Positions 10,816 through 62,336 of a DNA stretch of 64,000 bases are shown here, piece after piece. Origin of the DNA: a virus. The stretch is from the IMG/VR virus record IMGVR_UViG_3300022856_000003, one strand, 5' to 3'. The position numbers were made by a program, and so were the translations under genes. The notes beneath the pieces were generated by a model. It did no database searches and was not told where the DNA came from. It worked only from the letters and a program-made list of their open reading frames with translations. Position 1 is the stretch's first letter. Every line of letters starts with the position of its first letter.

Positions 10816-12264
10816 TTGATCTTGCGTCTTTGATGCCGTTGTGCTATGTTCAACAGGTCGAGACGACCCATTGATACCTCGCAGGTGCGAGGACCGGGAG
10901 AAGCCATGGACCAAAATACCCTCATCCTGACAGCAACCGACGGCGAAGAGATTCGCCTCATGCCGAACAGCTCTGGCACGGAAGGCACACATGCCATCTG
11001 CGTCAACGGCTGGAACGAGGGGATTGAGCATTTCGACAAGCATGGGGACGGCAATACTGTCATCCCATGCTCACCCGATCGGATTGGAGCAATGTCACCC
11101 GCTGATGCCTACCAGGAGTTCTTCCGTCGCATGGACGAGGAGTCCATCGACATGATCGTCCACGGTATGAATGCGGGCTTCTACGAGATGGCACAGGTGG
11201 AGCTGGACTACGCACATCGACCCTACGTCCTCAAGGTCCTCGGTGAACAGATGGGATGGGTAGAGCCCAACCCTGGCAACCTGACCTACTCGGCGTTTCG
11301 TTCACTGCCGACGATCGTTGGTCCAGTGAGTGCTGCGGACATCAACGGTTGCCTCGACGTGGTGAACGGATGAGAGCCAAGACCGAAATCGCGTACCACG
11401 CTGAGGAGCAGCTCTCCGCAGCACTACAGCTTGTGGCAGCTCTCGTCCTCACCGACGAGGAAGTTGCCGAAACGGCTCCTGATGCACGTCCAGGGAACCT
11501 CGTAGGGTGGGCCGAGTCGACGCGCAAGGAGATGCTCGACGAGCACAACAGACCGAAGATCGTGGCGATGCTCAAGCGTCGCGGGTACTACACGAACACG
11601 CATATCGGGTTCCCGCTGGCCTCGTTGAGTTCGCCAGGCCCTCGCGCACTCGAGGACGGCCTCGAGAAGTGTAGAGCCATCTCTGATGCCATACGAGATG
11701 GATCTATCAACTATGACCTCGACACTGGGCCGAAGAGCATGACTGATCGCCTTGTCCATGACGGGATGCGACAGGCCGATGCTGAATGGATAGTCAGAGC
11801 CCATGGCACAACGATGTTCCTCCTGGCGTCGATGGATAGGGTGATGGGACGAACGAAGTGACCGATCCCGAACCAGAGCGCGAGTACACAAGGAAGGAAG
11901 ACTTCATCTTCGATTTCCTCCTGTGGGCACTGCCAGGCATCCCGTATTTCGACACCGAGAAGAACCCGTTGAAGCGAATCAACGGAGACCAATGTGACTA
12001 CCCTGTCGACGACATTGTCCACCCGGCTGACTGGCCCGTTTGCTACACCCTCCTCTACACGAAGAGAGACGGAGCCGGAGAGTGCTGGACAAGTGCCATG
12101 GGATTCTCTCGATGGCTGTGGTTCGCGAGGCTCTGGCAGAAGATGGCGCTAAGGCACTACACGACCGAGCTTCGCAAGGACCAGAGAAAGTGGAAGCGAC
12201 GCCTTCCTCCTACTGGCTACGGCTACTCCGTGACCATCGTGCCGACGGTGTGGGTGGACTAGAC

Positions 12265-15078
12265 ATGAGCAAGAAGAATCGATTTGGCCCGAAGGGCGAC
12301 TGGAACCGCAAGTTCCACCCTGGGAAGGTCAAGAAGGCTGATCTCGACGACGACCTCGGCATAATCTTCGACATGGCGGCTGAGATCCATGCACAGGACA
12401 AGTCGCTGTTCGGTGAACTGTTCGATCAGATCTCCTCGCAACCCTCCCTTGTGAAGAAGTCGGCCTCTGTGACATTCGTTCCTGCTGCACAGAAGTCGCC
12501 GCAAGAACTGTTGCTGTCAGGTGAGATCAATGACTTCAAGAACTCCATCGCCGCCGCTTTCAGTATTCCGAAGGAGTTCATCTTCGGAGCGGACGAAGAT
12601 CCACCAGTCGTCCTGTGTAAAGGATGCGACCCGACACTGCTACAGGCCGATGTGGAGTGGTGCGAGATCTGCTACGTGGCAGGGATCAACCCCTGCGGTG
12701 AGATCCCAATGGATGGCCCACCCACGGACGAAATCGATTTCGCGACTCTGACCCCAGAGGTCTTCGCAAAGATGACCTCGTCTCAGCGCGGATCCATGGT
12801 CGGGAAGATCATGAAAGCGGTGGGCAAGTACTCACTCAATGGGCTCGATGTTCCGAAGGAACTGCTTGATGCTGTACAGGCTATGGCTCTAGCCGCGACG
12901 ACCCATCTCGACGCCAGCCCTGAGAATGACGAGCTACAGAACAAGATCAAGATCCCCAAATACGACATCAAGTTCGTCAAGGACAAGCCAGGGGCAGGAC
13001 TCATTCCTTGCGGACCGGTGACGCCGACACCCATGCCCTACCCGAAGTCTGGGCTCTGGGGGAATCTGAGCGCTCACGACCTCATCAGTGTCCAGCCGAT
13101 GACGAACCCAGCCGGAGCTAAGTTCCACTTCGACTACAAGTACGCCGAGGACGCCGAGAGCGAGGGCGTGGTCGTCGAGGACGAGGGGCTCCTGCTCGCT
13201 TCTCTCGGGTATAGCGACGGAGACATCAAGAAGATCCTCGCCGACAAGGCTGAGGCGAAGAAGAAGGAGTGGCAAGACTCTCTCCCTGGCCTGTCCGACA
13301 TCAAGCTGACGAAGACAGAGGTCACGGTCCACCCTGACAAGAAGCTCAAAGCCAAATGGGGTGTCGAACCCGTTGAGGACTTCAACAGTCCCGACAGCAT
13401 TCAGTCTGAGGCTGACCTGATAGGTGAATGGCTAGAGGACACAGGCGTGACGCCGACAGTGCTACCCAACCCGACAGATTTCGATGAGGACACTCTCGCC
13501 GCGTTCGCTGAGGCCAAGCTCAACAAACAGAAGGTCGCCCTGCTGGTGAAGGACTGGAGAAAGGTCCACCCTGGTCAGTCATTGCCACCGTTCTGTAAGA
13601 AGCATTCCGACTACGGCGCGATGATGTTCGGTGAGATCCTTGTCCACTGCGACAATGGGAACGGAACCCTGACCCTAGTCACAGGTGTGGTTGTCCCACA
13701 CTCGAGCGAAGGTGTGCAGATCATCGTGGAGAAGTCTCTTGCCTCCTCTGGAGGTGTGGGATTGAGCGACATGGGAGAAGCACTAGCCGACGTGGTCAAT
13801 AGCTCCCTGGATCTGCCACCACTGAAAGCAATCGACTACTTCCTTGCTATAGGCGTCTCAGGCTCGGACGCCCCGACCTACCTCCCACAGGGCTGCTACA
13901 TCGGAGCTGGCACGAAGAACATCGTATGGGGAGTGCCAGGCTCTCAACACGCTGTGACTGTGGCTGCCATCCACGAGAACCACTTCACCCTAGTGACAGG
14001 CGTGAACGTCCCGATCAAGCCGCCAATAGGCCCGAAGCCGATCTTCATGGATGCAGACGGCCAGAAGCCGATCTTCGCGCCCTACATCCCAGTCGAGTCG
14101 ACCCCCACGCTCGAGCTGAAAACAGCCAACGCCAAGTACGCGAAAAAGACTCTCAACCCGGCGCACTACGGTGTGGTCCCTCTCTCGAAGGGAAAGACGC
14201 AGACCGCTGTCGCAGCGAAGATGACCATCAAGGGCGTAAGCCAATCGATGATCTTCTTCGACGCCCAGACCGGGACCGAGTACTACATCGACCCCGTAAC
14301 TGGAGATCTTCACGAGGTGACTCGAGTCGTGACCAACGAAGACACCCTGACCGTGACAGTCATACCCAACAGTAAGAGCACGTTCTTTCCGGTGTCTCCA
14401 CTAGATGTCAAGAACGGAACACTGCCCTTCTCTATCAAGATGGCGATGAAAGCCAAGGCTGTCCTAGAGGCCAAGATCGCGCAGGAGACTGAGGAGATGG
14501 CTGACTTCAAGGAGCTGATGGGTGCTCCCCTCAAGGACAAGACCTCGTCAACGGACCAGTACAGCCCGATTCCCAAGCCCATCGTCTACCGAAAGAAGCT
14601 CCTCGGCGTGACCGTGGAACACATCCAATCGGAGCTGCTACCAGATGGTGAGAGCTTCCAGTACTACAAGGACGTAGTGACCGGAGACCTCCACAAGATC
14701 GTGGAAGCATCGAGCGGATGGGCCACATCCAAGGACGATGCGAAGACGTGGGTAATCGTCGAGGAGAACCCGGAAGCCACAGCTCCACCGACACACCCAC
14801 TGCTGCATAAGCTGAACACGAAGAAGAAAGTCAACGGTGATGTAGCAAGCCTCGAGGCTGAGGAGCACGTAGACGAGAATGGCGACCTCACTGTGAAGTG
14901 GGCTCCCAAAGCCAAGATGGTCACCCACACCGCTTCCTTCAAGAACAATGAGAAGCCTGAGAACCCAGACGACTTCATGTACGCAATGGAACAAGCTCAA
15001 GCTGACCGCATTCAGGCGAAGCTCGACGCAACACCACCATGGGAACAAGCACTCGACCTACTACACGACATGGACTAG
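12265..15078 (+). CDS. Large (937 aa) mosaic protein containing colinear gp23-type major capsid fragments and a portal-like peptide
   Basis: Probable start MSKKNRF at 12265, just after the previous stop. Motifs: AHDLISVQPMTNPAG..F.FDYKY; KKLKAKWGVEPVEDFNSPDSIQSEADL; FAPYIPVESTP; KYAKKTLNPAHYG. Confidence 0.65.
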   Translation: MSKKNRFGPKGDWNRKFHPGKVKKADLDDDLGIIFDMAAEIHAQDKSLFGELFDQISSQPSLVKKSASVTFVPAAQKSPQELLLSGEINDFKNSIAAAFSIPKEFIFGADEDPPVVLCKGCDPTLLQADVEWCEICYVAGINPCGEIPMDGPPTDEIDFATLTPEVFAKMTSSQRGSMVGKIMKAVGKYSLNGLDVPKELLDAVQAMALAATTHLDASPENDELQNKIKIPKYDIKFVKDKPGAGLIPCGPVTPTPMPYPKSGLWGNLSAHDLISVQPMTNPAGAKFHFDYKYAEDAESEGVVVEDEGLLLASLGYSDGDIKKILADKAEAKKKEWQDSLPGLSDIKLTKTEVTVHPDKKLKAKWGVEPVEDFNSPDSIQSEADLIGEWLEDTGVTPTVLPNPTDFDEDTLAAFAEAKLNKQKVALLVKDWRKVHPGQSLPPFCKKHSDYGAMMFGEILVHCDNGNGTLTLVTGVVVPHSSEGVQIIVEKSLASSGGVGLSDMGEALADVVNSSLDLPPLKAIDYFLAIGVSGSDAPTYLPQGCYIGAGTKNIVWGVPGSQHAVTVAAIHENHFTLVTGVNVPIKPPIGPKPIFMDADGQKPIFAPYIPVESTPTLELKTANAKYAKKTLNPAHYGVVPLSKGKTQTAVAAKMTIKGVSQSMIFFDAQTGTEYYIDPVTGDLHEVTRVVTNEDTLTVTVIPNSKSTFFPVSPLDVKNGTLPFSIKMAMKAKAVLEAKIAQETEEMADFKELMGAPLKDKTSSTDQYSPIPKPIVYRKKLLGVTVEHIQSELLPDGESFQYYKDVVTGDLHKIVEASSGWATSKDDAKTWVIVEENPEATAPPTHPLLHKLNTKKKVNGDVASLEAEEHVDENGDLTVKWAPKAKMVTHTASFKNNEKPENPDDFMYAMEQAQADRIQAKLDATPPWEQALDLLHDMD

Positions 15079-15527: not shown

Positions 15528-15562
15528 TTGACGTGCTCTGATTGTTCAGCTAGAATGATTGT

Positions 15563-15694
15563 GAGGCGAGGTGTTCCAGGCAGCAACATGACGGGCGGTT
15601 CGATTCCGCTGACCGAGGGCGAAAGCTCCATACCGGCCCGGTTTGGGTGGTTGATAGAGGTTCCGTAGTGTTGCTGCCTTGAGCGCCTTGCTCC
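15563..15694 (+). ncRNA. Candidate ~130-nt tRNA-mimic / Y-RNA (YrlA)-like RNA
   Basis: Directly follows promoter 15528-15556. 15566-15589 pairs with 15668-15691 (long stem with G-U pairs). Canonical T-arm GGCGG-TTCGATT-CCGCT at 15594-15610, followed by a closed stem with a GAAA hairpin. Confidence 0.5.
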
Positions 15695-19227: not shown

Positions 19228-22200
19228 GCCGCCTCAAGACCATCGTGGAGATCGAGAAGATCCTCCGCGACCATGTGACCAACGGGGAAGTGGACGCCGA
19301 TGGCGATCCGAGGAACTATGGTCATCCGCTCCATGACAGTAAGGCCCGCTATGCGTGGCTCGTCGCTGCGGACGCCTTGAAGCCTCATCCGATCCCCGCT
19401 GCCATGCCGACCCGCGAGCGCATCAAGGAGCTGGAGGTCGTGTGGTGGCCTCTAACGATGGGGAAGACGAACAGGTCCGAGGATTGGACCGAGACCCTCC
19501 TAGCCGTTCTGACGGCAGAGGAGGCGGTCTGGGGCCTGCGTTTCGAGTCCTACCTCGATGTCTCAGGCTGGGACCGCTCCGATAGCGGTGACGTTGAGTA
19601 CTCGCTCAACGCTGGGAATAGCGACAAGCACGATGAGGATCCTGTCGTCAGCCTCGTCATCAAGCGCGACATCTCATCCTGGGAGTGGTTCGTTCATTCC
19701 GACTCCTCATGGGGCGAGAAAATCGCTCAAGGCACCGGAAACCTAGCCATCGAAGCCATCGTCGCGGGTCTCTGGGCCTTCCGAACCGCATGTGACGCAC
19801 GAGGAGTGGAGCTGTGACACCGGACGAATACTACGCCCACGTCAGCCCGCCGCGTAAAGCCTTATCGAAGCTACTTAGTGGCCTCGCGCAGATCGTACTC
19901 GATGCGGGCTCTGGCAATTCCGTAGGCTGGCGAGGCGCAGTCCGCGCCATCAACTCGCTGCCGATGCTGGCGGAAGAGATCGAGATTGCCGAGAATCCGC
20001 CGTACAGCTACGAGACGAAGACGCCATGGGAGATGGGTCAGCTCGGTTGGCAGGTAGAGAACACCGTCAACTTGCTCGGGTGGGGTAAGTCCACTGGATG
20101 CTCGATTCGCATCCGCCGTTGGGACTGGCATGGCGACCATGGTGATGCCCACTTCCTGGTGAACTACACGACAGAAGACGGGTACCAGGACGCCTACGAC
20201 CGATGCTGCCGTAAGGCGCTCCAGGCGTGGAAGGAGTATCGAAAGCCGGGATGCCCGCCCAATGGCATCGGCAAGGCATTGAAGCGAGACAAGCTCAAAG
20301 AGGGCATGCGCGACCGCCTCTTCGGCGACGACGACACGAAGGTCAACACCACCGTTGAGGTGCTGCTCGCGGAACTCGACAATGCGCTTGGCTTGCCGAT
20401 GTTCGCCAACGAAGAAGACCCAGTCGAGAACGCTCTCGACACGGTCCAGGAGGATTAGATGTCGATGAAGCTAAATCAGGAGCAGACGAACTTTCTCCTC
20501 AGCCTCCTGCATGACGAGTGGCAGAACGCGGACGAAGAAGATCTTGCCGACCTCGAGCTGATCGAGGCGACCGTGCGGGCTTCCATCGCAGAGGCTCATG
20601 GTCTCCCGTCCGACTCCGGTTCGCTTTGCATCCTCAACATCACGCCGTCGAAGGAGACCTAGATGGAACCGACCGCATCAGAAGTACTCGCTGACGTGAT
20701 AGCGAAGGCTGTAGTCAAGAAGATGAGAGGGACCTCCTCGGTCCTCTCCTCCATCCTTGCCTTCCTGCTGGTCGGATTGCCTATCGCATCCATCATCTAC
20801 GCCGCCGAGAAGTCGCAGAACAAGCCGTCCGACGAAGGTCCTTGGTCGCTCGTACAACCCGCTCAGCACATGAGCGACAATCAACAGATCCCCGCCATCT
20901 ACACGGCAGAGATCGACGGTCGACGCTGTCTCGTACTCATGGGAGTACTGGCCGATAGCCTCGACTGCGAGGAGAGAGACTGATGGGTAATATCGGCGGC
21001 CTGATGAGGCGAGGTGCCTTGTCCATCGACACTGTTCGACCAGTGGCTCGACAAGTCTGTCTGGACCTGTTCCCGACACTCATCAAGGTGGTCGATGCCG
21101 AACACGGTGTTCTCTTCGAGTGGGTCCACGAAGATGACCGCGCCGCCGCCTACCAGGGCGAAGCCTTCTGCTGGTACCAGTACAACCGCTCGAAGGTCGG
21201 TGGAAAGCCCATCCGATGGGGTGAGTTCGGCTGGTGGCTACGAGGCCGGATCGAGGCCCACACTGCCGACCGACTCAGCGGAGTCGTAAAGCACTGGGAC
21301 GAAGGTGTCGGTGAAACCTGGCTACCAGACCTCGAGAAGCACAAGACCCCCTGGGAATACCAGCGTGGGTACCTGAGCAACTCGACCTCGGTGTGGGCTG
21401 ACTGCGCGTTAGTTCTCGCTGCCTTCTCGGGATACAAGAAGTTGCCTGCGGGACTCGATCAGAAGTACATCGACGACTACCCCGAATGGGTCCAGATCGC
21501 CTCATGCCCCGCCCCAAAACAGCCGCCGATGTGGTGGAAGTTGCTCACGGGCAAGTTGAAGCCGAAGACCGAAGTCGACGAAGTACTCGACATCATTGGA
21601 GAAGACTGATGGCCACCGCCGAAGACCTGACCGAGACCGAACCGACCAGCCAGTGCGCCATTTGCAAGTCCACCGACGTTGAAGTGCGCCGATCCGACTG
21701 GTTCAAGGTCAACGGGAAGAAGGAATGCACCTACGGTGACCCTGACTCCTCGGACATCGAGTACCACTGCCAGGACTGCGATCACAACGAGATCGAGCCC
21801 TACGTCGCCAAGAAGGAGGCCACCGATGGCTGACCAGCCAGAGTGGATTGAGGTCAAGCTCATCCTCCGCTATCGACCCAGCGTTCTGACTCCTGGAGGA
21901 GAAAGTCGCAACGAGCCCTCCGACGAAGACGAGCTGATCGAGGAGATCGATCGGGCGATGAACTCCTCCCACTTCGGTGGTCAGATTGAGGTTCGCCGCG
22001 ACCCTCGTCACGACTGGACTCCCGGAATGCACGCACAACGCGCCCACTGGGACGCGATGACCTCGGGTGAGATTCCTCGACCCAAGTGCGTCCAGTGTGG
22101 CGAGACCGTTGAGGTTGAGCGCATCGTCTACGCGAGCCCGACTTGCTACGCATGCCTGCCACCACCACGGCTGACCAAAGAGAAGGAAGACAAATGAAGG

Positions 22201-22552: not shown

Positions 22553-22855
22553 ATGACCGTCGAACTGAGCAAAGAAGACTTCAACATGCTCATCGTCGGC
22601 GCAGTCCGCTACGCCATCGGACGACAGACCTACGTCGTCCAGGAGACAGTGGATCTGGTGCTACGACACAGAGATTCCATCACCAGGGGCCGCTGCCAGA
22701 TCATCGTGAGGTCCATCCGCGAGGAGGAGAAACGGAGCCGTCTAGGAGGAAGACCCGACACGTACCGGTGGACCCGTCTCGCCGAGGCACTCGAGCAGCC
22801 ACCAAGACCGTCGGACCCTGTCGAAGCCGCGCTGGATGACATCGCGTTCTCTTGA
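22553..22855 (+). CDS. Small hypothetical phage protein (AVRYAIGRQTY) with acidic C-terminal tail
   Basis: ORF in an operon. The motif is recalled from uncharacterised phage proteins. Confidence 0.55.
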   Translation: MTVELSKEDFNMLIVGAVRYAIGRQTYVVQETVDLVLRHRDSITRGRCQIIVRSIREEEKRSRLGGRPDTYRWTRLAEALEQPPRPSDPVEAALDDIAFS

Positions 22856-24208
22856 CAACGGTAACCACTTCGACTAGAGTAGAAATATGCCGCGTGAAAG
22901 CTCCAACGTCCGAATCGCCAACGCAATCAAGCTCCTGGACGACTTCGCCACCGAGGCGTCTTCCACTGATCAGGAGCCCGAGCAAGATGAGTGGTGGGAT
23001 CTCCTGTACGCCGTCCTCAAGGCGCTGAGAGGATGAGCTACCACGTCGAGGAACTCGAGAAGTTCAGCAAGGCCCGAAAGACCGATCAGGACGCTCGATT
23101 CCAGATGGGCCGTAAGTACCAGCTCCTCACGCCGCGAGTGCAGGAGGTCGTGGCGATCTGCCGTGGCATGACAGATCGTCCTCCGAGGGACACTCGGTTC
23201 AAGCTCTGGCGCGTCAAGAAGATGGGCTCCGTCATCGAGGTGCTTCACGAGAGATACTACGGAGAGGGGGTCTACGGTGTGTGCTCGCGTATCCAGTTCC
23301 CCGCCTCCTGGCTCGACATGCCAAGGGATGAGATCAAGGCTGAGATGACTCTCACGCAGCAGAAGATCACCGACTTCGATGACGGTCAGGAAGGCTACCC
23401 AGCCGTCCCAGGGCCTCCGCAACCAGATACCGACCCGGTCGAGGACTTCCTCGACGACCTGATGGAATAGACATGGTTGGACCAAAAGAGCGGTACTCGA
23501 AGCCCATCACGATCTGGTGAGCCGTGGTCGTAGGGTATGGCCCGAAAGGGACGTGCCCGACCGGCAGGTTGCCGGTATTCAGTGTCGAGACCGAAGAGGA
23601 AGCTGAGGCGTTGATCCAGCTCGCCTGTTCGACGAACTACGAAGGCGAGTACATCGCGAAGGAACTGGCGGAAGAGCAGACCATGGAGAACCTCCAGGCA
23701 TTCAGCGACCGACTTGCCGACATCCACGAGAGGTTCTTCGCTCCACGGTGCCCCGCGAAATCGATTTCACCGGATGAGTAGGACCTGCCAGAGGTGTGGC
23801 GACACAGATCCGCCGTCCATCAACACGGTCTGTCAGAACTGCGGGGCTCTCATCCGTGGAAACAGAGTCCGCAATTTTCGATACGTCGTGAGCCAGCAAG
23901 GGAGCCACTGGGTCGCCCGCGTGTTCTCCGGGTACAGAGGGGAAACCTTCGCCGCCCTGGGTGCGCTTACGATGGACAAGACTGACGTGGAGGATCTTCA
24001 CGAGATAGCCAACTACACGCCGTTCATTGAGGTCCAGTTCGCCATAGCTGCGGAGAGGCAACTTGTTAAGATCAGGTACGACAGGGCTGGCCCAAAGAAG
24101 TCCCCTGACTCTTCGATAGAGGCCGAACCTAGTCTCCTCGACATCATCCAGGACACGTAGGCGGCCCGTTGTGCTACTATGCGCTTGTTCAACCGATGTT
24201 GAGGTGAA

Positions 24209-24715
24209 ATGAGCACAGACCCACGACCATCCTGGCTACTCGACGCAAAGCTCAAGGTAGAGCTGGTGCCGCAGACATCCTGGGGCAACAACCTCCGATC
24301 CCTCCTGCGTCGAAAGGACTGGGATAACCTGCGCCGAGAGGCGTACATGAAGGCTGGTCACGTCTGCGAGATCTGCGGAGGCAAGGGTCGAAAGCACCCC
24401 GTCGAATGCCACGAGATCTGGGAGTACGACGACGATGCGAAGATCCAGAAGCTCACTGGGCTCATCGCTCTCTGTCCCGCGTGTCACCGCTGCAAGCACC
24501 CCGGTATGGCCGCAAGGATCGGCCTGATCGCCAACGTGTTCGCTCAGCTCGAGAAAGTGAATGGATGGACCTGGGACCAGGCCCGCGTGAGTCTCGAGCT
24601 TGCCTTTGAACTTCACCGACTCCGCTCGACCGTCCCCTGGACCGTCGACACGGACTGGCTCGGACTCGACGAGCAAGGTGTGACCTTGCTTCGCATGGGG
24701 ACTTCCGGTGAGTGA
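24209..24715 (+). CDS. HNH endonuclease family protein
   Basis: ELVPQTSWGNNLR...W...R...CEICGG...ECHEIWEYD...LIALCPACHRCKH. Confidence 0.75.
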   Translation: MSTDPRPSWLLDAKLKVELVPQTSWGNNLRSLLRRKDWDNLRREAYMKAGHVCEICGGKGRKHPVECHEIWEYDDDAKIQKLTGLIALCPACHRCKHPGMAARIGLIANVFAQLEKVNGWTWDQARVSLELAFELHRLRSTVPWTVDTDWLGLDEQGVTLLRMGTSGE

Positions 24716-26101: not shown

Positions 26102-26533
26102 GTGAGTCAGGCCGACATTCTCAAGAAGCCCTGCCCAGGGTGCCCTTTCTCTCGAAAGACGGATCCGAAGTACCTCAAGTCTCGAGGCGAAGACGTGCGC
26201 CGATTCATCGGACAGTCCGTCGGCCCATTCTTGCTCCCGTGTCACACGTTCGCGGACAAGGAAGACTGGCCTCTCGACGTGGAGCGGCCACAGTGCGTGG
26301 GTGCTGCAATGCACCGAGACCTCATCGGCGTTGCGGACAGTCTCCCAGAACAGCTCACCAGAGCCACAGGTGACGCTGAGGAGGTCTTTGAGTCCTCTGC
26401 CGCGTACATGGCCTATCACGATGGCTGCACCGTCGAGGAGGCCGTAGAGAAGCTCGACAACTATCCTGTGAATCGTCTCTTCTACGACGAGATCGCTCGT
26501 TGTCATCGATCAGGACGAAAGGTGAAGGCATGA
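26102..26533 (+). CDS. DUF6283-like Cys-containing protein
   Basis: KPCPGCPF...PCHT...QCVGA pattern. Confidence 0.5.
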   Translation: MSQADILKKPCPGCPFSRKTDPKYLKSRGEDVRRFIGQSVGPFLLPCHTFADKEDWPLDVERPQCVGAAMHRDLIGVADSLPEQLTRATGDAEEVFESSAAYMAYHDGCTVEEAVEKLDNYPVNRLFYDEIARCHRSGRKVKA

Positions 26534-48569: not shown

Positions 48570-49094
48570 GTGACCCATAAAGCCGTGCCTCAACGGGTCA
48601 TGGGCGACCAGGGTCCGTTCAACGTCCAGGTGCTTGAGAACACGACCAGTAGGTACGCCTTCTGGATGTGTTGGGTAGAACGCAAAGGGAGCGTTTGGTT
48701 CGCCTGCTGGCGCTTCGGGAAGATTGGCACCAGCGGAAGGTCAGGCGGGTCCAAACACCATGGGTCCTATGCTGCCCTGGCCGCTGCGGAGGCGAAGTAC
48801 CAGAAGAAGAGGCTCAAGGGTGACTACGTCGCTGTGTGGAACGGTGGTCCTCCTGTTCACCCCTCTCAGCCGTCGAAGCCGAAGAAGAGCAAGGTCGCGA
48901 TGCCCCTACTGATGGGGAAGCAGGAAGCGGTCCCCCTAATCCATGGCTACACGTCGAGTCAGTGGAAGAACGTCGAGTCGACCGGGAACTCGAAGATCAT
49001 GGAGGGGAAGTTCACTGGCGCTGCATTCCCCGCCCCGCCCGTCCCGGATGTGACTCCAGATGACCTACTAGACCTCATACAGTTCATGGACTGA
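48570..49094 (+). CDS. WGR-domain protein
   Basis: RYAFW...WRFGKIGTSGR...AEAKYQKKRLKGDY. Confidence 0.65.
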   Translation: MTHKAVPQRVMGDQGPFNVQVLENTTSRYAFWMCWVERKGSVWFACWRFGKIGTSGRSGGSKHHGSYAALAAAEAKYQKKRLKGDYVAVWNGGPPVHPSQPSKPKKSKVAMPLLMGKQEAVPLIHGYTSSQWKNVESTGNSKIMEGKFTGAAFPAPPVPDVTPDDLLDLIQFMD

Positions 49095-50545
49095 TGTCGA
49101 ACAAGCAGAACAACAGTCCACAGTACGTGGATGCGAACGACTACAGCTACTCCTCCTCCTACGGGGATGGTCACGCCCGTATGAAGGAACAGGAAGTCCT
49201 CACGTCAGAGCAGGTCTTTATGTCCGCGTCAGCCGGATGGCCGAAGTCGTCGAAGTCGTCCACAGCGATGGATCTTGTCGAGTTCCAGGCGAAGCTGGAG
49301 TCTGTACGTCTGGCTCTGATGGAGTCGGATGAAGCGGCTTCGTCTGACAATCCGGATCCTCTCCTGATGACGCTTCGCGCTGCGCTTATGGCTCAGGCTG
49401 AGTTGATGACCCACATTGGTAACCAAGCCAGGGGTCTACAGAACCGTATCTCGACCATGGTGAAGGCCAAGAAGGCAAAAGACACCCTTGAGTCTGACAT
49501 CGCGAACAAGATCCTCATGGCTGACATCGCGAAGCTCAAAAGGGAGAACGGTCATCTTTCGGTTCAGATCAAGGGCGATTCGTTAGCGAAGGAGCGTGTC
49601 GCTAAAGAACAGAAAGCTCTGAGGCTCAACCTCTCTGTGCAGGTCAATGCTTTGAAAACCTGCGATTTGACGATCCAAAGGCTCGAGCTAGAGAACGACC
49701 TCTACGTCACCACGCTTGAGCGCATCGAGAAGTACGATCCTGATTGGAGACGGAAGATCTTCCCAGATGAGAACTTGGCGACCAGCTCTGGGCATAGCTC
49801 CAGCGACGACGGGATCGACCTCATCCTCGAGATTGTGGGGTTGGACGGATGAGCCCCGAAGACGAGCTGAGAACCAAGTACGAGGGTGCCTTCCTTGAGT
49901 TCAATGACGGAGAAGTCAGGGTCTTCTGTAGATCACCCATCGACATGGCCAGGACGCTTCTACAGCTTGCCGCTGATGAACCCGACGAGTCTGTGGTCGT
50001 CTACGGTGCCCATACCGCTGACATCGAGGCTGAGGACCCAGAAAAGGATGCTCTCCTGATGAAGGTCCTTGAAGACCCAACTGTCCAACTCGCCATGGCC
50101 ATGCTGGGCGGGGAAGTCATCGACGTTTGGCAGTCCGATCCGTCGTGAAGTACTACGGCCAAGTGGTAAGCGAAGCACTTCTGGCCGACCCTCCACGGAT
50201 ACGTGGATACCTCGACGGTGACATGCTCCGACGGCTCATCAGGTACGAGGGTCGACGTGGCTCCAGGAAGTTCCTGTTCGACATCATCGGATGGGTGGAT
50301 TTCAGAGATCTCATCAAGAGGAAGGACCTCGTCGCCCTTGCTCCAGCACTGGTGGAGCCGCCTCTCACGGTCAATGCCATCAAGGGACGACGGAACGTGC
50401 CATGCCCACACTGTGGGCTCGAACAGCTCGGAGTTCAGTTCTGGACACACTACAACCTCTTTCACGCGAGGCGTGTAAACTGGTTGAACCGAGAAGACTG
50501 GTCCAAGATGGGGCTAGGCGAATACCAGACCCCACCGGAGCAACG

Positions 50546-51950: not shown

Positions 51951-52810
51951 AGCCGCTCTACCCCTCGGGCGAGATCACAACCTGCCCTGGTGAAAGCCGG
52001 GGTGACTGGAGTGATCATGAACCACAAGAGAAAAAGACCAAAGAACCGACGTGGCGGATGCCTTCTGTGTAAGCCGCACAAAGCCAATGGTTGCAAGCAC
52101 GGGAACCCGACTAGACAAGAAGCAAAAGCTCGCGCTAGCGAGGCTCAGCAGATTCGCGAAATCGATTTCGCATCCCTTGATTGAGATAGCGACCGCTGAT
52201 ACACTCTCGATGTTCAAACACTCCCCAAACCGCGCAAGGTGCGCGAGGAGAATCGATGAAGACCCTTACGGATACCGAACGTCTCGCCCTTCACACCCTC
52301 GGCAAGGGAAACAAGGGACTCAAAGAGAGTCGCGACGGTGTCGTCCCAGGCCAGTACACGGTGGACTTCACGGTTCACGTCACTGGTGATTTGACCATTG
52401 CGCCGGATACGACGGTTGCCCCGACTGTGACCCTACCGGCGAAGGAGATGGTCGCCAGGCTCCTCAAGATGATGGGTCACACTCGTTCCAGCGGGATCAA
52501 GCTGTTGGGTGCCATGGCAGAAGAGATCGACGGTCTGACCGCTGGTGCGAAAAAGACGCTGATGGCAGAGTCGGGCTTCAACGAGGCGACCAACATCATC
52601 AAGGCCCAGACCGTCGCGGTCATGGGGAAGACTCCTCGTCGTGGTTCCGTCAAGGGAGCCTTGAGCTACGAAGTCACTGATGCAGCGCCGACGGTCATCG
52701 TCGAGCAGCTCGAGGCAGAAGTTCGCAATATCCCCGCTCAAGACGATGTCTCGGGTGCGGTGGATGACATCCTCAACATGGACGATTAGTCCAGCCCTCA
52801 CCGGAGTCTC

Positions 52811-54139: not shown

Positions 54140-55408
54140 GGTGTTGAGGAGGCAGAGCGCATGACAGACAGCCACGACAAAGTCGACCTCGACATCGAAG
54201 ACATGCTCCAACCGGAGATTGCGATCTCCATCGAGGAGAAGATCGCGCAATGTCGAGGGATCCCTGCGGTTCGCAAGATCGTCCAGGCCCACATCAAGAA
54301 GACGGTCATCGGACCACTCCAGGCAGCGATGAAGATGAATGGCATCATCGTCGAGCAACCTGAGCAGCGTCGTCTCTTCGCCGAGACAGTGTTCGCGTCC
54401 GTCTCGTTCACGCTCACTACGGGAGCTGAGGCGACGATCAGGTTGCTGGCGATGCTCAGCACTCGAGGAGGCCACCCGGCCACTGCCGAGGGATGCGAGC
54501 ACCAGTACTGCCCGCATCATCGCGGTCTACATCCGGTACTTCACATGAAGGCCATCCAGGACAAGAAGCCCATTGGCGTAATGTCCGACATTCTGGCCGA
54601 GAACGGCATGGACCCCAGCATGATGCTCGCCTTCAATGGCCCCAAGGCGGAAGCATGAGCAGCGTCTCAGCAGCGTCCCTTCTCGACGACGAACCCTCGG
54701 TGCAGGTGAAGCGGGTCGTCAAGATCGCTCCTTGCGGTGGCTGTGGGAACTTCCTCCTCCGCGACAAGATGTGGGCGATGAACACGAAGATCTACAGCCC
54801 GGATGACAAGGCGGAAACCGTCATCCGCGTTCGGGTCTGCGAGACTTGCGCCACTGGCGAGATTGATGATCTCCGAGAGATCGAGTGGGACAACGCATCC
54901 ATGCGAGTCCTCAAGGACGACGAGTCCCTCGAAGAGATCAACAAGGCTCTGGACAACGTGATCGAGGGATGAAATCGATTTCGCAGGAGGTCTGCGTGGA
55001 CAAGGACGAGAGCTACTTGAAAGACTTCAATCCGCTCACTGCGGAAGGCCCACCATGCCCACGATGTGGAGCTGAGTGCGAGTTGAAGCCAAGGGCTCGT
55101 GGGATTCGAGCGTCGTTTGTCTGGAAGTGCCCAAAGAAACCCACCGAACATGGTGTGATGCGGCTCTCTCAAGGCAAGGACATCCTTGAACGCCTCAGAC
55201 ATCAGCATGCCGACAGAGTCGCGGCTGAGAACGAAGTGATGATTCAGGAGTTCGACCAGGACGACATGGGCGCTATCGGCGAGATTCTCGCTGAACTCTG
55301 AATATTCGATCCCCGTTTACTTGACCTGACGAACGCCAACCGATACAATCCTAGTGCGTCGCGACATTGAGTCCGACGCCGCCCAAGGTGGGCATTCAAG
55401 GTGAATAC

Positions 55409-57094
55409 ATGACGACCAAGTCTCCTACTCCTACCTCTCCTGCCATCGACGACATTCGGGTTGGAATCGCAGCGCGATTCCCCTGCATGTGGCTCGAGAC
55501 GCACGAGGAACGTCGCGCTCTCGCCGAACTCGGTGACATGTGCGAAACCATGAACCTCAAGCTCTTCGTTTGGTCGATCAGTAGCGGCATCCGTCGTCGT
55601 CTGACCGGTGCCGAACGAGCGACGAACAAGAACTCCTCCCAGTACGAGTCGATCGCTCCAGAGGCAGGACCGGATGAGCTGATCGAGGCCGTTCTGGCAC
55701 AGCCGAAGGGTTCCGACGGTTCCGACGTTCGCGCTCTCTACGTCCTTGCGGAGATCGACGAGCTGATCAACGAGGATGTTGTCCTTCGTCGTAAGTTCCG
55801 CGAGTTCATCGAAGACGCGCGAGCCCGCCAGGGTCGTCACGTCCTGGTGATGACTCCGCGAACCAACAACATCCCGACGAGTCTCGACCGCACGGTCACT
55901 CAGGTGACTTTGCCGGTTCCTACCCGTGACCAGCACGCTCAGCGAATCGACCGGTTCGTGACCCAGTTCAAGGGCCGAAAGAAGGGCGACAAGCTCGTCA
56001 ACCTGTCCGCGAAGCAGCGCGAGCGCCTGATCAACGCGGCCACGGGCCTCACCCGTGACGGTCTCGACCGAGCCGTCTCCGTCGCTCTGACCGAGTTCAA
56101 GTGCCTCGACGAGCGCGCCATCGAAACGGTCGCCAAGGAGAAGCGTCAGCTCGTGGACGGCACCGGGTTCCTCCAGTACACGGAACCCGCCGAGACGCTC
56201 GACGATGTCGGTGGTCAGGATCTCTTCAAGGCATGGCTCCAGCAGCGCATGAAGGCTTTCGGACCCGAGGCCCGCGCCTACGGACTTCCCGAGCCGAAGG
56301 GTGTGCTCGTCACGGGTCCTCCCGGCGTCGGCAAGAGCCTGGGAGCGAAGGCGGCAAGTGCGACCTGGGGTCGACCTCTTCTTCGTCTCGACATCGGCGC
56401 GCTGATGGGCGGCATCGTCGGGGAATCCGAAGGGAACACCCGGCAGGCCATCGAACTCATCGAAGCGATGGCACCCTGCGTCCTCTGGATTGACGAGATC
56501 GAGAAGGGCCTCTCGGGGATGGCATCCTCCGGCTCCACCGATGGCGGAACCACGGCGCGCGTCTTCCAGACCCTCCTGACGTGGCTCAACGAGAAGACCT
56601 CCTCGGTGTTCGTCTTCGCCACGGCGAACGACCCGACGAGCCTCCCGCCCGAGCTTCTTCGAAAGGGCCGTCTCGACGAGATCTTCGCGGTGACGCTTCC
56701 CAGTCACGTTGAGCGTGTCGAAGTCCTCGAGATTCACATCAACCGGCGCAAGCGCAACCCGAAGGACTTCGACCTTGAGTTGCTCGCGGCCAACACAAAG
56801 GGCTTCTCCGGTGCCGAACTGGAACAGGGCGTCATCGACGCAATGTTCGCGGCCTTCGCTGATGACGGTGCGGTCCTCTCGACCAAGTACGTCCTCGACG
56901 CAGTCCAGGCGACGAAGCCGATGTCCGAGACGATGGCCGAGCGCATCGAAGCGATGGCACTCTGGGCCGAGACCCGCGCTCGCCCTTGCTCCAGCCTGAC
57001 GGGACAAGAGCCGGTCATCCAGTCCGCGCCGACGACTCCCGCCGAGCAGAAGCAGGCCGCGTCTGACGACATCCTGGACATCCTGACCGACTGA
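55409..57094 (+). CDS. AAA+ ATPase, Ycf46-like
   Basis: Walker A GPPGVGKS, Walker B VLWIDEIEK, FATANDPTSLPPELLRKGRLDEIF, GFSGAELEQ, and a degenerate N-terminal AAA domain (THEERRAL). Confidence 0.9.
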   Translation: MTTKSPTPTSPAIDDIRVGIAARFPCMWLETHEERRALAELGDMCETMNLKLFVWSISSGIRRRLTGAERATNKNSSQYESIAPEAGPDELIEAVLAQPKGSDGSDVRALYVLAEIDELINEDVVLRRKFREFIEDARARQGRHVLVMTPRTNNIPTSLDRTVTQVTLPVPTRDQHAQRIDRFVTQFKGRKKGDKLVNLSAKQRERLINAATGLTRDGLDRAVSVALTEFKCLDERAIETVAKEKRQLVDGTGFLQYTEPAETLDDVGGQDLFKAWLQQRMKAFGPEARAYGLPEPKGVLVTGPPGVGKSLGAKAASATWGRPLLRLDIGALMGGIVGESEGNTRQAIELIEAMAPCVLWIDEIEKGLSGMASSGSTDGGTTARVFQTLLTWLNEKTSSVFVFATANDPTSLPPELLRKGRLDEIFAVTLPSHVERVEVLEIHINRRKRNPKDFDLELLAANTKGFSGAELEQGVIDAMFAAFADDGAVLSTKYVLDAVQATKPMSETMAERIEAMALWAETRARPCSSLTGQEPVIQSAPTTPAEQKQAASDDILDILTD

Positions 57095-57180: not shown

Positions 57181-57783
57181 ATGGAGGTCAAGGTGACCCA
57201 GGGTGACGACAAGATTGCAATCTTCGGGAAGATCGTCGAATCTTCTGTTGACGGCCCCGGAACCCGCGCGGTGATTCACTTCGCAGGCTGTTCCATCGGG
57301 TGCCCCGGATGTTTCAACCCTCTGACCCATGATGCGACCGCGCCAGGCGTCTGGTACGGCTCCGCGAAATCGATTGCGCGGAGGATGCTCGCGGTATCCG
57401 ATTCCGTGACCATCTCCGGTGGCGAGCCCACCGACCAGCTCGAGTCCCTGTTCGACCTCTGCGTGGAGCTGAGGGCAGAAGGCTGCAACGACATCGTCCT
57501 GTTCACGGGCAAGAAGGTGTCTGTCCATGAGAGGAAGCCTCTCTGGAACAAGCTCATCAGAGATTGTCTTGTGGATGTCGTAGTCGACGGACCCTTCAAG
57601 CAAGGGAACCTCGCCATCATCGGGCTCCGTGGCTCCGACAATCAGGAAGTCATCCCGATCACCGAGCGGTGGACCGTGGCCGACTTCAACGAGCGGGAAG
57701 TCGAAATCACGCTCGACTTCTCCAGCGGTGGCCTGCTAATCACGGGCTTCCCTGACCAGGAACTTCTCGACCTGCTGGCGTGA
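57181..57783 (+). CDS. NrdG-like radical SAM / 4Fe-4S protein
   Basis: VDGPGTRAVIHFAGCSIGCPGCFN (CxxxCxxC), TISGGEP, DVVVDGPF, LRGSDNQ. Confidence 0.85.
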   Translation: MEVKVTQGDDKIAIFGKIVESSVDGPGTRAVIHFAGCSIGCPGCFNPLTHDATAPGVWYGSAKSIARRMLAVSDSVTISGGEPTDQLESLFDLCVELRAEGCNDIVLFTGKKVSVHERKPLWNKLIRDCLVDVVVDGPFKQGNLAIIGLRGSDNQEVIPITERWTVADFNEREVEITLDFSSGGLLITGFPDQELLDLLA

Positions 57784-57856: not shown

Positions 57857-58054
57857 ATGCGACAAGAAGTAGAAATCATCATCGACCCGCTCTCTGGCGA
57901 GATGTCCTCGAAAGTCGTCACAGGACCGGGCGGCGCACTCTGCGAAACGATGCTCGAGCAGCTCTTCGACCAGAAGCCCTCGGGCACGAAGAAGTTGCCT
58001 GAGTACTACCAGAAGCGCGTCACCGTCGGCAAGACCAAGCAGAAGCGCGGATAG
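57857..58054 (+). CDS. DUF2997-like protein
   Basis: EVEIIIDPLSGEM..KVVTGPGGALCETM...KLPEYYQ, in its usual neighbourhood. Confidence 0.7.
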   Translation: MRQEVEIIIDPLSGEMSSKVVTGPGGALCETMLEQLFDQKPSGTKKLPEYYQKRVTVGKTKQKRG

Positions 58055-58120: not shown

Positions 58121-58597
58121 ATGAGTGCCTACGCCGAATACAACAGTGTCCAATTCAAAGACCTCCCTTGCCTGATTGAGGCGCTCCAGAAGTGCCGCAA
58201 CCGGAAGGGGATCCCCTGGACCCTGTACAATCTCGTCATCAGCGAGAACAACGACATCGATCTCTACGGCTACGAGGGGAAGAACCGATCGACCGCCAGC
58301 GGCCAGAACCGTTCGCCCAAGTGCTCGATCGCCATCGCGGGAGCGGGACGCCCCGGGTGTTTGAACGCAGTCGGCTCGTCCTCCAACGACCTCGGCTTCA
58401 CCCGAGACGCCGACGGGAACCTCGCCCCGGTCATCAGCAGCTACGACTCGACGGCCTACGACGAGTGCTGGATGAACGAGTTGAAGGCGACCTACCTCGA
58501 AGTCCTCGTCAACAAGAACGCGAAGAAGAACGGCTACAAGGTCAAGAAGACCGAAGTCGACGGCAAGGTCAAGCTGACCATGACCCGCTGGCGCTAG
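58121..58597 (+). CDS. DUF1257 / Ycf35-like protein
   Basis: MSAY....VQFKDLPCLIEALQK...LYGYEG...SNDLGF...ISSYD...LKATY...AKKNGYKV. Confidence 0.75.
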   Translation: MSAYAEYNSVQFKDLPCLIEALQKCRNRKGIPWTLYNLVISENNDIDLYGYEGKNRSTASGQNRSPKCSIAIAGAGRPGCLNAVGSSSNDLGFTRDADGNLAPVISSYDSTAYDECWMNELKATYLEVLVNKNAKKNGYKVKKTEVDGKVKLTMTRWR

Positions 58598-58653: not shown

Positions 58654-58685
58654 AAGCCCTGCCCTAATTTTGGGGTAGGGTTTTT
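58654..58685 (+). terminator. Intrinsic terminator
   Basis: AAGCCCTGCCCT-AATTTT-GGGGTAGGGTTT followed by TT, after the DUF1257 gene. Confidence 0.7.
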
Positions 58686-59314
58686 CCCGTTGGGAGACAA
58701 GATGACACCGCTCGAAGAAGAGGCTCTCCGCGAGCAAGTCAAGGTTCCCGACCGATTCGCCATCAAGGACGCGGACGGCTTCTGGACGTTCCTTTCGGAG
58801 CTGGATGATGCGCGGTTCATTGTCGAGTACAGCCCAGTCTTTCGAGTGCAGGGAGACATACGACTGGTCATAGGACCCTGGGGCATTCGGGACCGTCTTC
58901 CACTGGAATCACCAGTCGACGATCTCAGCAGGGTCTTGCTGGCTGTCACATCGGCTCCTCTTGAGCCCTCACAAGCCCGCTACGTGGCTGCGCTAATTTC
59001 CTCACACTCTGTGACCCTTCTGACAGTCGAAGGCGCTCTCGAGCCATCTGAGTGGCCTCTTGAGAACGTCCTCTACGAGATCTGTCACCTGGGTCAACGC
59101 TCTGGCCTCATGGGCTCTGTTGAGAGGTACAGCGAGGACAGTGTCTTCCGCCTCGACACAGGCGACGAGACGCCACTGGAAGATCTGGCTCACATGCTCT
59201 GGCCAGCGGGTGGTCAGTTCGACCCCATCGCTTGACAACTGCCGACCGCACCGATATAGTAACTGTGAGGGCGAGATGCCCTCAGATGTCGTCCAAGGTG
59301 GACGAGGAGACTAG

Positions 59315-60919
59315 ATGGCACTCATCCGACTAGGCATTCACAAAGACTACGTCCCTAGCTGGGGAATCTGGGAAGGGGTCCGTGACCTCGTTCAGAACGC
59401 ACTCGACGAAGACGACAAGGGCAACGCTCTGTCCGTCCATGAGTATCCGAAGACCAACCGGATCAGCCTCATCAACGATGGTTCAATCCTTCCGCTAGAA
59501 GCCCTGCTCATCGGCTTCTCAACGAAGGCCAACGACACTCAGTCTCGTGGTCAGTACGGAGAGGGCCTCAAGCTCGCAATGCTGGCTCTCATCCGCGAAG
59601 GAGTGGGAGTCGTCATTCGTTCTGGCGGAACGACTTTTAAGCCGATCATCGCCATGGATCCGCAGCTCAACTGCGAGACCCTCTGCATCAAGACATCGAA
59701 GACCAAGGACCTTGGTATCACCGATGTGATGCTCGAGAACATGAGCACCGCTGGCTGGGCCGAGTGCAAGAAGCGATTCACGCGCTGGGCAGGATTCACC
59801 GACACGGTGGAAACCGCTGGAGGAACCCTCATCCGCGACGACGCGGCCAAGGGGATGGTCTTCGTCAAAGGCATCTACGTCTGTACCCTGGAAGGGTTGA
59901 AGTTCGGCTACGACCTCAAGCATTGCGACTTGGACCGTGACCGCTCCATCCCGATGCAGTGGGAGCTGGAGTTCCAGACCAGCAAGATTGTCGAAGCCGC
60001 GATGCTGGCTGACAAGGTCACTCCTGATGAAGCCATCGAGTTGTTCACGGGAGGAAATGTCGAGTCCCGCAAGTTCGGCTCCTCGTTCTCTATCGCTCCT
60101 GGCTCCTCTGCTCTGGAGAAGGCCATCCTCGAAAAGCACCCTGATGTGGATGCCTTCGAGTTTGAGGGAGACGATCTCAAAGCTCCCGAAGATCTCAAGG
60201 TCGTCAGGCTCCCTGCCGCCATGCGAGGCCCGCTGGCTGATCGTCTGACTTCTGTCAAGTCGGTCATGAGCGCACGTAGCGGAATGCCGACCGCGATATT
60301 CACCAGGAAGCAGTTGTCAGAAACCGAGACGAGGAACCTCCTCCTCCTCGAGATGTTCACGCTGTCAAAGGACGACAAGATCCTCCCGGTAGAGATGAAG
60401 GACCCTGTTTCTACCCTCCCAGGTGATGACGAGATCGCCCAGGTGGTTGTTTGTCGTCGACTCCTCCGTACCGATGACGGTCTGGTCAGGGTGATGCAGG
60501 GCCTCATGGAATACGGAGTCGCCTCCGAGGACGAAGTATTCGCCACATTGCTCAAGGTTCGCAGTGGACATGATGCAATTGATGCAGAGGCGGCTGAACT
60601 CCGAGCCAGCATCGAGCGTGAGAAGATCGCGTGGGACGATAAGCGTCGGCAAAATGTTCGCGAGGCAGTAGCCCACATCCAGCGTCGCGAAGAGACAGCC
60701 CGACAGGAAATCGCTGACAAGGAATCTGACTACCTGCTCGAAGCGGATCGGTTCTTGACGAAGGCGAAGAAGCGCGGCGAGGAAATTCTCGCGGATTCCA
60801 TCGTCCAGGCCGCTGACTTTGAAGTCGAAGCAATGGACAAGCTCAAGGCGAAGCTCCTTGAGAGTGTCGTAACCGAGAGCGATGTCGACGACATCCTTGC
60901 CAACCTGGGGAATATGTGA
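59315..60919 (+). CDS. GHKL (HATPase_c/MORC-like) ATPase with a C-terminal coiled coil
   Basis: YVPSWGIWEGVRDLVQNALDE (N box), NDGS (G1), GFSTK...GQYGEGLK (G2). Confidence 0.8.
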   Translation: MALIRLGIHKDYVPSWGIWEGVRDLVQNALDEDDKGNALSVHEYPKTNRISLINDGSILPLEALLIGFSTKANDTQSRGQYGEGLKLAMLALIREGVGVVIRSGGTTFKPIIAMDPQLNCETLCIKTSKTKDLGITDVMLENMSTAGWAECKKRFTRWAGFTDTVETAGGTLIRDDAAKGMVFVKGIYVCTLEGLKFGYDLKHCDLDRDRSIPMQWELEFQTSKIVEAAMLADKVTPDEAIELFTGGNVESRKFGSSFSIAPGSSALEKAILEKHPDVDAFEFEGDDLKAPEDLKVVRLPAAMRGPLADRLTSVKSVMSARSGMPTAIFTRKQLSETETRNLLLLEMFTLSKDDKILPVEMKDPVSTLPGDDEIAQVVVCRRLLRTDDGLVRVMQGLMEYGVASEDEVFATLLKVRSGHDAIDAEAAELRASIEREKIAWDDKRRQNVREAVAHIQRREETARQEIADKESDYLLEADRFLTKAKKRGEEILADSIVQAADFEVEAMDKLKAKLLESVVTESDVDDILANLGNM

Positions 60920-62336
60920 TGGCGGAAGTCACCCGCTACTACGACGTGATGGATCTGCCCGACGAGATCTACAACGCTCTCAACGTCATGGGCCACTATC
61001 TCAGTGGGGAAGGCGTGTCGAGCGGTCTCATCAAGGTTGTGGATAGCGATGTTCCGGCCTTCGTCGAGAACGGCATCTGGTTCATCGACATGCGGTGGGC
61101 CATCCAGGCGTCCAAAGGAGCGACAGCCATGGTCCTGACCATCTGTCTCGGAGCGATGTCCAGGGATCAGTTCGAGGTTGAGGCACACAAGGTCTTCGAC
61201 CGCACGCTCAAAGCGCAGCTCTCTCTAGCCAATGATCTCGTGAAGTTGCAGGAAGTCACGGACAACCGGGTCAAGCGCATCAAAGACCAGGCCATGCGCG
61301 ACCTCAAGAGCTACCTGCTCGACAATGTCGTAGTGACACAGGACGACGTGGACACGGCCCTAGACGACATCTTGAGGACGTTCTAATGACCGACCTCGAC
61401 GAAGCAATCGAAGTGGTGGCGAACCTAGCCAATCGGACCCACACACCGACCATCGCTGACGGCATACGCATCGGTGCTCATGCTGTCCGAAGGGCGCTGG
61501 AGGAGGTGTTCGAGAAGAAAGTGGTGCTAAATATCGGAGGTGATAGCCCTGCTGATGAGATGTTCGGGACGAGACGCGAAGGGCTCGAGAACCTTGCAGC
61601 CACCCTTGCCGACAAGGACCGTGATTCTCCCATCCCACACAGCGAAATCGATTTCGCCAGTCTCAAGTTCGAGGACAAAACTCACCTCGACGATGACGAG
61701 AGTAGGACGCTCACTCAGATGGCCTTCTTCATCTGGGGAGACCATTGGCACGGCTCGAATACCTCATGGCTCCAGATCGCTGATCTGCCGCGCAAGGGGT
61801 TCGCCATCTACGCCACCGAGGCTGGTCGACCTCTGGTCGTCATCGACCCGCGATGGCTGACTCCTGGTTCGTTCACTGGCGATGGTCCTGGCGCACGGCA
61901 GTTCACTGCCATCCTCCTGGCTCTACCCAGTGCGAACGCCAAGCACATCCTCAATCTGTCTCTCGAGCGTTTGTTCGGCTTTGCATCCTCGGTGAACCGC
62001 AAGGAGAGTGAGTACAAGGGCGAACTCGACAAGGAGTACGCCAGGAAGGAACTCGATCTCGCCTCCGGGTTCGCTGACAAGGTAGAGCAGGCCCATGCCA
62101 CAGCACTCGAACGCACATTGAAGGCTGAGAGGAACTCGATCAACCGTTGCTTGGTCGCTGAATCGGAATGCAACGAGAAGGTCCTTCTGGCCGAAGCGGA
62201 GGTCCGAGATATGAAGATCTGGTGCGAGACGGTTCGTGAGCGTGCCTCGGCAGATGCGCGGCAAATCCTCGAAGATCAAGTCGTCCTCGAACGCGACATC
62301 GACTCTGTACTCGAGTCCATCATGGAGACCCTGTGA
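60916..62336 (+). CDS. Two hypothetical proteins (60916..61386, 61386..62336) sharing a coiled-coil + VVxxxD[VI]D tail with the GHKL ATPase
   Basis: LLESVVTESDVDDIL / LLDNVVVTQDDVDTALDDIL / ILEDQVVLERDIDSVLESI. Confidence 0.6.

Follow-up and report, generated by a model that had tools for sequence, protein, structure and literature searches.

A clade-restricted acidic C-terminal tag on unrelated phage proteins and its possible link to a Ycf46-type AAA+ module

Why should some two dozen unrelated proteins of a single phage end in nearly the same few residues? The question is raised by a 64,000-nucleotide stretch of the IMG/VR virus record IMGVR_UViG_3300022856_000003 (hereafter the window), in which a codon-model gene call yielded 124 genes, all on the + strand. 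A sequence-only reading had listed 24 of them as ending in a shared acidic-hydrophobic tag, and its stop coordinates and tail sequences were correct throughout, every gene being on the + strand; about one in six window genes is tagged. Here we show that this tag is genuine, selected as a peptide, and restricted to one clade. We further propose, with confidence evenly divided between acceptance and doubt, that it is this clade's spelling of a docking tail belonging to a module built around a Ycf46-type AAA+ ATPase, which has spread to about 25 accessory or repair-type client proteins.

Taken literally, the tail pattern originally put forward fits 13 of the 24 listed genes (0.16 expected), while a relaxed core, [LVI]-D-x-[ILVM]-x(1-7)-stop, fits 21; the genes ending at 49852, 55301, and 62336 are looser variants in which LE or GE replaces LD. 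Across the window, this core was found in 22 of 124 proteins as against 2.3 expected from internal pseudo-termini (p = 2e-15), i.e., in the 21 listed genes and in one small gene of 39 residues ending at 44593, where the match is probably a native helix. A motif-blind scan of gapped three-residue patterns also ranked hydrophobic-D-x-hydrophobic first (25 vs 3.8; p = 6e-14). The enrichment that had been predicted relative to shuffles and other proteomes was clear in the window and absent from both control sets, with observed/expected ratios of 0.95 for other viral loci (2,152 proteins) and 0.66 for metagenome loci (549 proteins).

Could such an excess arise by chance, from composition, or as a side effect of ribosome-binding sites and gene overlaps? 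The tails do have an acidic character, and where genes overlap, a few of them close with ED or MD. However, 5,000 shuffles that preserved the composition of the last 20 residues gave a mean of 4.8 core matches and a maximum of 14, compared with the 22 observed. Since the core codons show synonymous variation and roughly genome-typical usage, the tag is not a DNA repeat, which bears out the earlier claim of selection at the peptide level. Moreover, with varying codons and with a gap of >20 bases downstream of about one tagged gene in two, a ribosome-binding site is not the cause. Together with conservation of the tag among relatives at 30–70% identity, these results refute an origin of this kind, whose probability we regard as negligible.

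As to the anatomy of the tag, LD lies 5–11 residues before the protein end and the final residue is not conserved, while hydrophobic residues occupy positions -4, -1, 0, +3, and +4; the hydrophobic moment is 0.46 at 100 degrees vs 0.20 at 170 degrees, and the net charge of the last 15 residues is -3.9 in tagged vs -0.6 in untagged proteins. This suggests a short acidic amphipathic helix rather than a free-carboxylate motif, with a consensus of roughly phi-[ED]-x-[AC/phi]-L-D-x-phi-phi (phi, hydrophobic), some 10 residues long and carried on a flexible tail. The Pro-rich linker said to precede it is a modest trend (8.1% Pro vs 5.0%). Tagged proteins have a median size of 200 amino acids (aa) vs 112 aa for untagged ones. 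Local copying of 3′ ends was considered as well, as some neighbors look alike (three DPVE tags, two EP tags), but adjacent tags resemble one another no more closely than tags far apart (p = 0.5), and this origin is not supported overall. Tag-like segments also occur at the N-terminus of five genes against 1.9 expected (including window 38482 and 62979; L041:14672; L205:10591), an excess that is suggestive only, and the motif may thus work at either protein end.

Which proteins carry the tag, and which do not? Several public metagenomes contain identical proteins, on contigs reaching 144 kb (144,017 bp for ERZ27315639 k141_341577), and by walking outwards from these contigs we covered ~101 of the ~144 kb of this genome, replication module included, the other ~42 kb being the head-tail region by synteny. 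The phage is myovirus-like, with a T4-type portal and a contractile tail tube, and no cultured phage is close to it (portal identity 32% at most). Tags are missing from ThyX, a KhpA-like protein, DnaC, DnaB, a primase-like protein, a protein resembling single-stranded DNA-binding protein (SSB), an SF2 helicase, RecA, ParB, the glycosylation operon, terminase, and portal. Overall, the tag covers accessory and repair-type proteins and is absent from those of replication, recombination, and packaging and from the structural proteins sampled, so that it does not extend to the proteome as a whole.

To place the origin of the tag, we turned to relatives. Scans of IMG/VR, metagenome, and GTDB collections with single proteins returned no close relatives of the tagged region, and those used here were obtained through protein-level look-ups. 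Four syntenic relatives (L049, L050, L055, and L056) have the tag on orthologues, with a count of 13/111 (4.1 expected). The tag of the Ycf46-type ATPase (535 aa; 55487..57094) is kept in all four, and hence in 5/5 clade genomes, and the gene just upstream (101 aa, looser tag; 54996..55301) is tagged in 3/3 relatives (L050, L055, and L056). Past the window lie three further tagged genes, encoding proteins of 211, 245, and 340 aa, the last of which looks like a PD-(D/E)XK nuclease by eye and has no Pfam match. The tag is kept on the relatives' orthologues of the 211-aa protein and of a 177-aa member of a widespread unnamed family (52256..52789), and on most orthologues of the 245-aa protein and of a GHKL (MPN635-like) ATPase (59315..60919); the L050 orthologue of a WGR-domain protein (weak Pfam match; 48600..49094) is tagged too.

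Homologue alignments indicate that the tag is appended past the domain in several families. The ATP-dependent DNA ligase (40853..41908) carries it on 26 extra residues missing in the L056 orthologue, and a 90-aa Cys-rich protein (54700..54972) on 18 extra residues missing in the L050 and L055 orthologues. Of the 15 closest homologues in the 177-aa family, about 10 end in a tag-like extension (5 when the strict pattern is applied); ~135 remoter ones stop at or soon after the domain and are untagged. The 340-aa nuclease-like protein shares its tag with a 64% homologue and not with four homologues at 40–45%, and the closer GHKL homologues (P0003-P0011) have tag-like tails that the more distant P0012-P0026 mostly lack. 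To the sequence-only reading, the tail had looked appended; this stands for the families above and not for the radical SAM (NrdG-like) protein (57181..57783), where it is the native terminal helix of the family and tag-like only in the window phage and L049. This case apart, the tails did not turn out to be ordinary domain parts in unrelated homologues, an outcome that would have spoken against the reading. Finally, a complete 198-kb outgroup from the same phage family has the portal (44%), terminase, SSB, DnaB, RecA, GHKL, and 177-aa family in common with the clade and is untagged (3 core matches vs 7.4 expected). This outgroup has no Ycf46 ATPase, DUF1257, or DUF2997-like gene.

What, then, could read the tag? 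The tagged ATPase, assigned to AAA by Pfam and Ycf46-like, stands beside a DUF1257 (Ycf35-like) gene (58121..58597; Pfam match just under the cut-off) and a small DUF2997-like gene (65 aa; 57857..58054), the latter recognized by position and by alignment with small genes beside other Ycf46 ATPases, with no Pfam match. Both products are untagged in 5/5 clade genomes and are candidate readers. A confident model of the ATPase (predicted local distance difference test score, pLDDT, of 92) matches p97, Rix7, and Drg1 across both domains, with an alpha/beta N-domain and no coiled coil; pLDDT falls to 48–64 over tail residues 511–535, which suggests that the tag sits on a flexible tail, and in orthologues the tag is kept while the preceding linker is unalignable. 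In 149 ATPase homologues, the linker is followed by a short motif specific to the lineage, namely R-x-phi-D-phi in 27 and other motifs elsewhere, and the core pattern of the tag occurs in 1 of ~145 homologues outside the clade. The window ATPase tail matches 13 of 123 window tails, compared with a mean of 2.2 and a maximum of 8 for 134 foreign ATPase tails.

Tail sharing between ATPases of this family and their neighbors extends beyond the clade. Across 92 unrelated Ycf46 loci, with the clade left out, neighbors match the tail of their own ATPase 35 times vs 14.3 with foreign tails, and vs 19.1 when a random own-locus gene serves as query to control for composition and paralogy (p = 0.0025). 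Seven of the 35 matching neighbors are the gene immediately upstream of the ATPase, i.e., the position tagged in this clade. Matching pairs come in a basic spelling (TRKIAKAA on both proteins) and an acidic one (F-x-D-phi-D-phi), and since the partner profile mixed several families, one of them ParB-like, the partners are not one family. In the clade, the C-terminal 35 residues of DUF1257 carry a charge of +7 to +11 (-6 to +7 elsewhere), and both it and the DUF2997-like protein are more basic than in most other modules; such proteins would fit an acidic ligand, a weak hint that comes from one lineage.

Taken together, these data suggest a mechanism in which the module would consist of the ATPase, the radical SAM protein, the DUF2997-like protein, and DUF1257, and one binding groove would read all tails, its likeliest site being the untagged DUF1257/DUF2997-like pair and the alternative the ATPase ring itself. 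The groove would bring ~25 accessory and DNA-repair-type proteins to a p97-like remodeling machine after infection, outside the virion. These proteins could be clients themselves or adaptors that deliver their own targets, and the outcome for clients might be unfolding, degradation, activation, or mere co-location. A single hub had been proposed at the outset, and a tag that is lineage-specific, peptide-level, and often appended is consistent with one common partner; among the candidates then named, the comparative data come nearest to an unfoldase adaptor, in the form of the Ycf46-type module. As for a compartment or nucleus shell, another of those candidates, no shell protein was seen.

Several points weigh against docking to the Ycf46 module. 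The excess seen across loci is modest in size, at less than twofold above the composition control, and the tails of some foreign ATPase/partner pairs do not match. Foreign partner families have no homologue in the clade sequence seen, the acidic helical tail is unlike the commoner R-x-phi-D-phi tail of the ATPase family, and the ~42 kb coverage gap must be counted here as well. Furthermore, the tag, the module, and a dispersed DNA palindrome co-occur in one clade as compared with one complete outgroup, and because this co-occurrence amounts to a single event on the same branch, genomics alone cannot separate the candidate readers.

The palindrome in question, G[AC]AATCGATT[TG]C, has 28 cores in 92 kb, or about one per 3.3 kb, within and between genes, with 20 sites in window 621-63675 and others in L049, L050, L055, L056, L210, L212, and L214; its center, AA-N-CG-N-TT, resembles a LacI-family operator. 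A protein bound to it could be the reader and tether tagged proteins along the phage chromosome, by a logic like that of SlmA, Noc, or MatP. The palindrome is present in all four tagged relatives, has zero copies in the untagged outgroup, and several tagged proteins act on DNA, but the co-occurrence is one phylogenetic event and nothing ties the tag peptide to a palindrome-binding protein, so that we hold this reader to be quite unlikely.

Another option is a host hub unrelated to the module (a Clp/Lon adaptor site, RNA polymerase, a response-regulator face as with CheZ, or a polar scaffold), the ATPase then being one more client. CheZ and FliM use acidic amphipathic LD helices, as does Pup. 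For Pup, such a helix is on record (PMC8755798), and the phage appears to copy a host motif elsewhere: its 334-aa SSB-like protein (L199:16615-17619) ends in the bacterial-type DDEDIPF (DDDDIPY in the outgroup). The phage DnaB (L199:11304-12608) has a conserved acidic-aromatic tail of its own, and both tails are probably mimics of host SSB docking. A host hub nevertheless leaves unexplained why foreign Ycf46 ATPases share tails with their neighbors in other spellings, and the evidence on the host amounts to a weak hint of Myxococcota. We therefore consider it rather unlikely. The sole host clue is a lipoprotein (9373-10239) with MopE-type repeats and an AhpC/TSA domain that resembles Myxococcota proteins; it has a tag-like end and was left out of the tagged set because it is an exported thioredoxin-fold protein.

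The host-type SSB tail bears on two further hubs that had been suggested. An SSB partner is disfavored, as the phage SSB ends in DDEDIPF and not in the tag. For a sliding clamp, the known counterparts are the T4 motif LDFLF, found on gp43 and ligase, and the Pol III clamp motif, whose consensus is QLxLF. L/I-D-F does occur in three tags (on the genes that end at 32206 and 32634 and on that of the 211-aa protein past the window), the T4 motif is helical and present in T4 ligase (PMC6212786), and ligase, the nuclease-like protein, GHKL, and WGR would be plausible clamp clients. However, F follows LD in 3 of 27 tags only, and the ~101 kb covered, replication module included, yielded neither a phage-encoded sliding clamp nor a DNA polymerase such as the family B enzyme of the T4 system, with searches run on only part of the genes. 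The presence of DnaB/DnaC and the host-type end of the SSB point to host Pol III being used, where the clamp motif is extended (PMC6212786). A clamp-binding motif accordingly retains a slim chance.

Could the tag instead load proteins into the virion or another capsule? Cargo of encapsulins and microcompartments carries terminal peptides after flexible linkers. Yet none of 31 head-tail-region genes of the closest structural relative is tagged, the tagged genes are among early-type genes and include proteins of 534–937 aa, and an N-terminal leader of another kind, M-K-x-L-I-x-x-L-x-E, is found on other genes, with no overlap between the two sets, all of which makes an encapsulation signal highly improbable. 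The T4-type capsid-targeting sequence is likewise an N-terminal leader of ~10 residues ending in Glu, unlike the C-terminal tag. Seven small genes at window 45055-47317 start with M/V-K-x-L-I-x-x-L-x-E, which resembles the T4 capsid-targeting sequence, and none is C-terminally tagged; related leaders occur in L050, in L055, and, spelled otherwise, in the G003 head region (L241).

The remaining tagged genes, all on the + strand, are largely nameless, as Pfam and PHROGs searches gave most tagged proteins no name. They encode two 155-aa proteins (10906..11373 and 60919..61386), proteins of 214 aa (19814..20458) and 208 aa (20983..21609), two with a Pro-rich linker before the tag (100 aa, 22553..22855; 145 aa, 23033..23470), one of 62 aa (23972..24160), and one of 315 aa with the core 11 residues before the end (26530..27477). 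Further along are a 187-aa protein (31643..32206), a 124-aa protein (32260..32634) that is a weak paralogue of its 134-aa neighbor (32706..33110), a 172-aa protein with both a C-terminal tag and a tag-like N-terminal segment (38482..39000), and two coiled-coil proteins with looser variants (252 aa, 49094..49852; 316 aa, 61386..62336). Two more are mosaics: a 937-aa protein with a capsid (gp23-like) fragment (12265..15078), for which a homologue search gave none of similar length, and a 358-aa protein with a Lys-rich coil and Cys clusters (24708..25784). Both contain fragments of the major capsid protein (a 44-residue match, 41–45% to the relatives' capsid proteins), and could possibly act as decoys for capsid-sensing defenses.

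Other features of the clade lie outside the tagged set. An untagged 177-aa protein (58702..59235, + strand) is conserved in 4/4 relatives and missing in the outgroup, and an untagged phage-encoded Cpn10 co-chaperonin is found at window 52811-53119. A 650-base non-coding gap (window 15079-15735) with C-runs and a repeated segment, AGCACCA...GGGAAGACCCC, is possibly an origin or an RNA element. A clade-specific protein of 166–196 aa (L041:16239-16739, with orthologues in L049, L050, and L055) has an invariant terminal WGLD, which makes it the second conserved end motif.

Short docking motifs are known on a handful of phage proteins, while here at least 25 unrelated proteins are tagged through stepwise gain in one clade; a literature search that covered few subscription papers yielded no account of the tag or of how Ycf46 works. 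Should the tag prove to be the tail of the Ycf46 module, it would provide a handle on an ATPase family that is widespread in cyanobacteria, plastids, many bacteria, and phages, and whose substrates and mechanism have so far been obscure. It would also join two dozen uncharacterized proteins in a single pathway open to testing, and it hints at a targeting tag of 10 residues that is portable. More tentatively, Ycf46/DUF1257/DUF2997 might be an undescribed bacterial p97-like remodeling machine with an encoded, lineage-recodable address tag, which this clade expanded to about one in six of its accessory proteins. Some of these would then be modular adaptors that join a variable target-binding body to a constant tail for docking and bring host or phage targets to the machine, in the manner of viral F-box/BC-box adaptors in eukaryotes.

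How does the tag compare with known systems? It would act much as clamp-binding motifs, AAA+ docking tails, and the Pup helix do, and departs from each of the three in a defining feature. The T4 gp45 clamp-binding motif is carried by gp33 and gp55 among others. In its LDFLF form, it is helical and occurs in the gp43 polymerase and DNA ligase (PMC6212786). Like the tag, it is a short, LD-centered, often C-terminal helix on unrelated phage proteins including a ligase, but it has four or five clients vs ~27 tagged proteins here, which do not follow LDFL[FY]. Docking tails of AAA+ ATPases, i.e., HbYX of PAN/Rpt/Cdc48 and GQYL of mycobacterial Mpa (PMC8755798), share with the present case a short conserved end motif after a flexible linker on such an ATPase, p97-like here. 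HbYX, however, is hydrophobic-Tyr-X at the exact C-terminus, whereas the tag has no penultimate Tyr and a variable last residue, forms a putative helix 5–11 residues from the end, is common to ~25 non-ATPase proteins, and has no known 20S or peptidase partner.

Pup has a tag-like core, DDLLDEI. This 30-residue helix of Actinobacteria is bound by the N-terminal coiled coils of Mpa (PMC8755798). Both Pup and the tag are acidic amphipathic helices that mark many unrelated proteins, Pup for an AAA+ unfoldase, but Pup is ligated post-translationally, while the tag is encoded in cis, spans ~10 residues, and accompanies an ATPase modeled without a coiled coil. Conjugation of the Pup/UBact type pairs a small modifier ending in GGE/GGQ with a PafA/Dop ligase; here, no tag ends in GG[EQ] and tag ends are variable, no search aimed at PafA/Dop having been made. 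SSBs of the T4 gp32 type have an acidic tail ending in DDLL, with a phi-D-D-L-L core like that of the tag, which sits here on proteins other than the SSB-like one. Similar tails were found in L005, L010, and L034. In this unrelated phage family, which has a Ycf46-type ATPase, the SSB-like protein and the gene after the ATPase end in long acidic DDLL/DALL tails, and such tails are limited to two or three proteins per locus. The CheY-binding peptide of CheZ and FliM, which binds phosphorylated receiver domains, resembles the tag as well.

For the module itself, the nearest precedent is cyanobacterial: Ycf46 (Slr0374/Synpcc7942_0417) and DUF1257 belong to a stress-induced operon with a KaiC-interacting ATPase, the same ATPase family and partner genes as in the phage, and the accessible part of that account mentions no substrate tag or phage role (PMC13683863). 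Overall, the tag is probably a variant of the short motifs that dock proteins to a hub, tied to an uncharacterized p97-like module, and adds to these systems a spelling that is acidic and helical, a client set of unusual size, and gains dated against an untagged outgroup.

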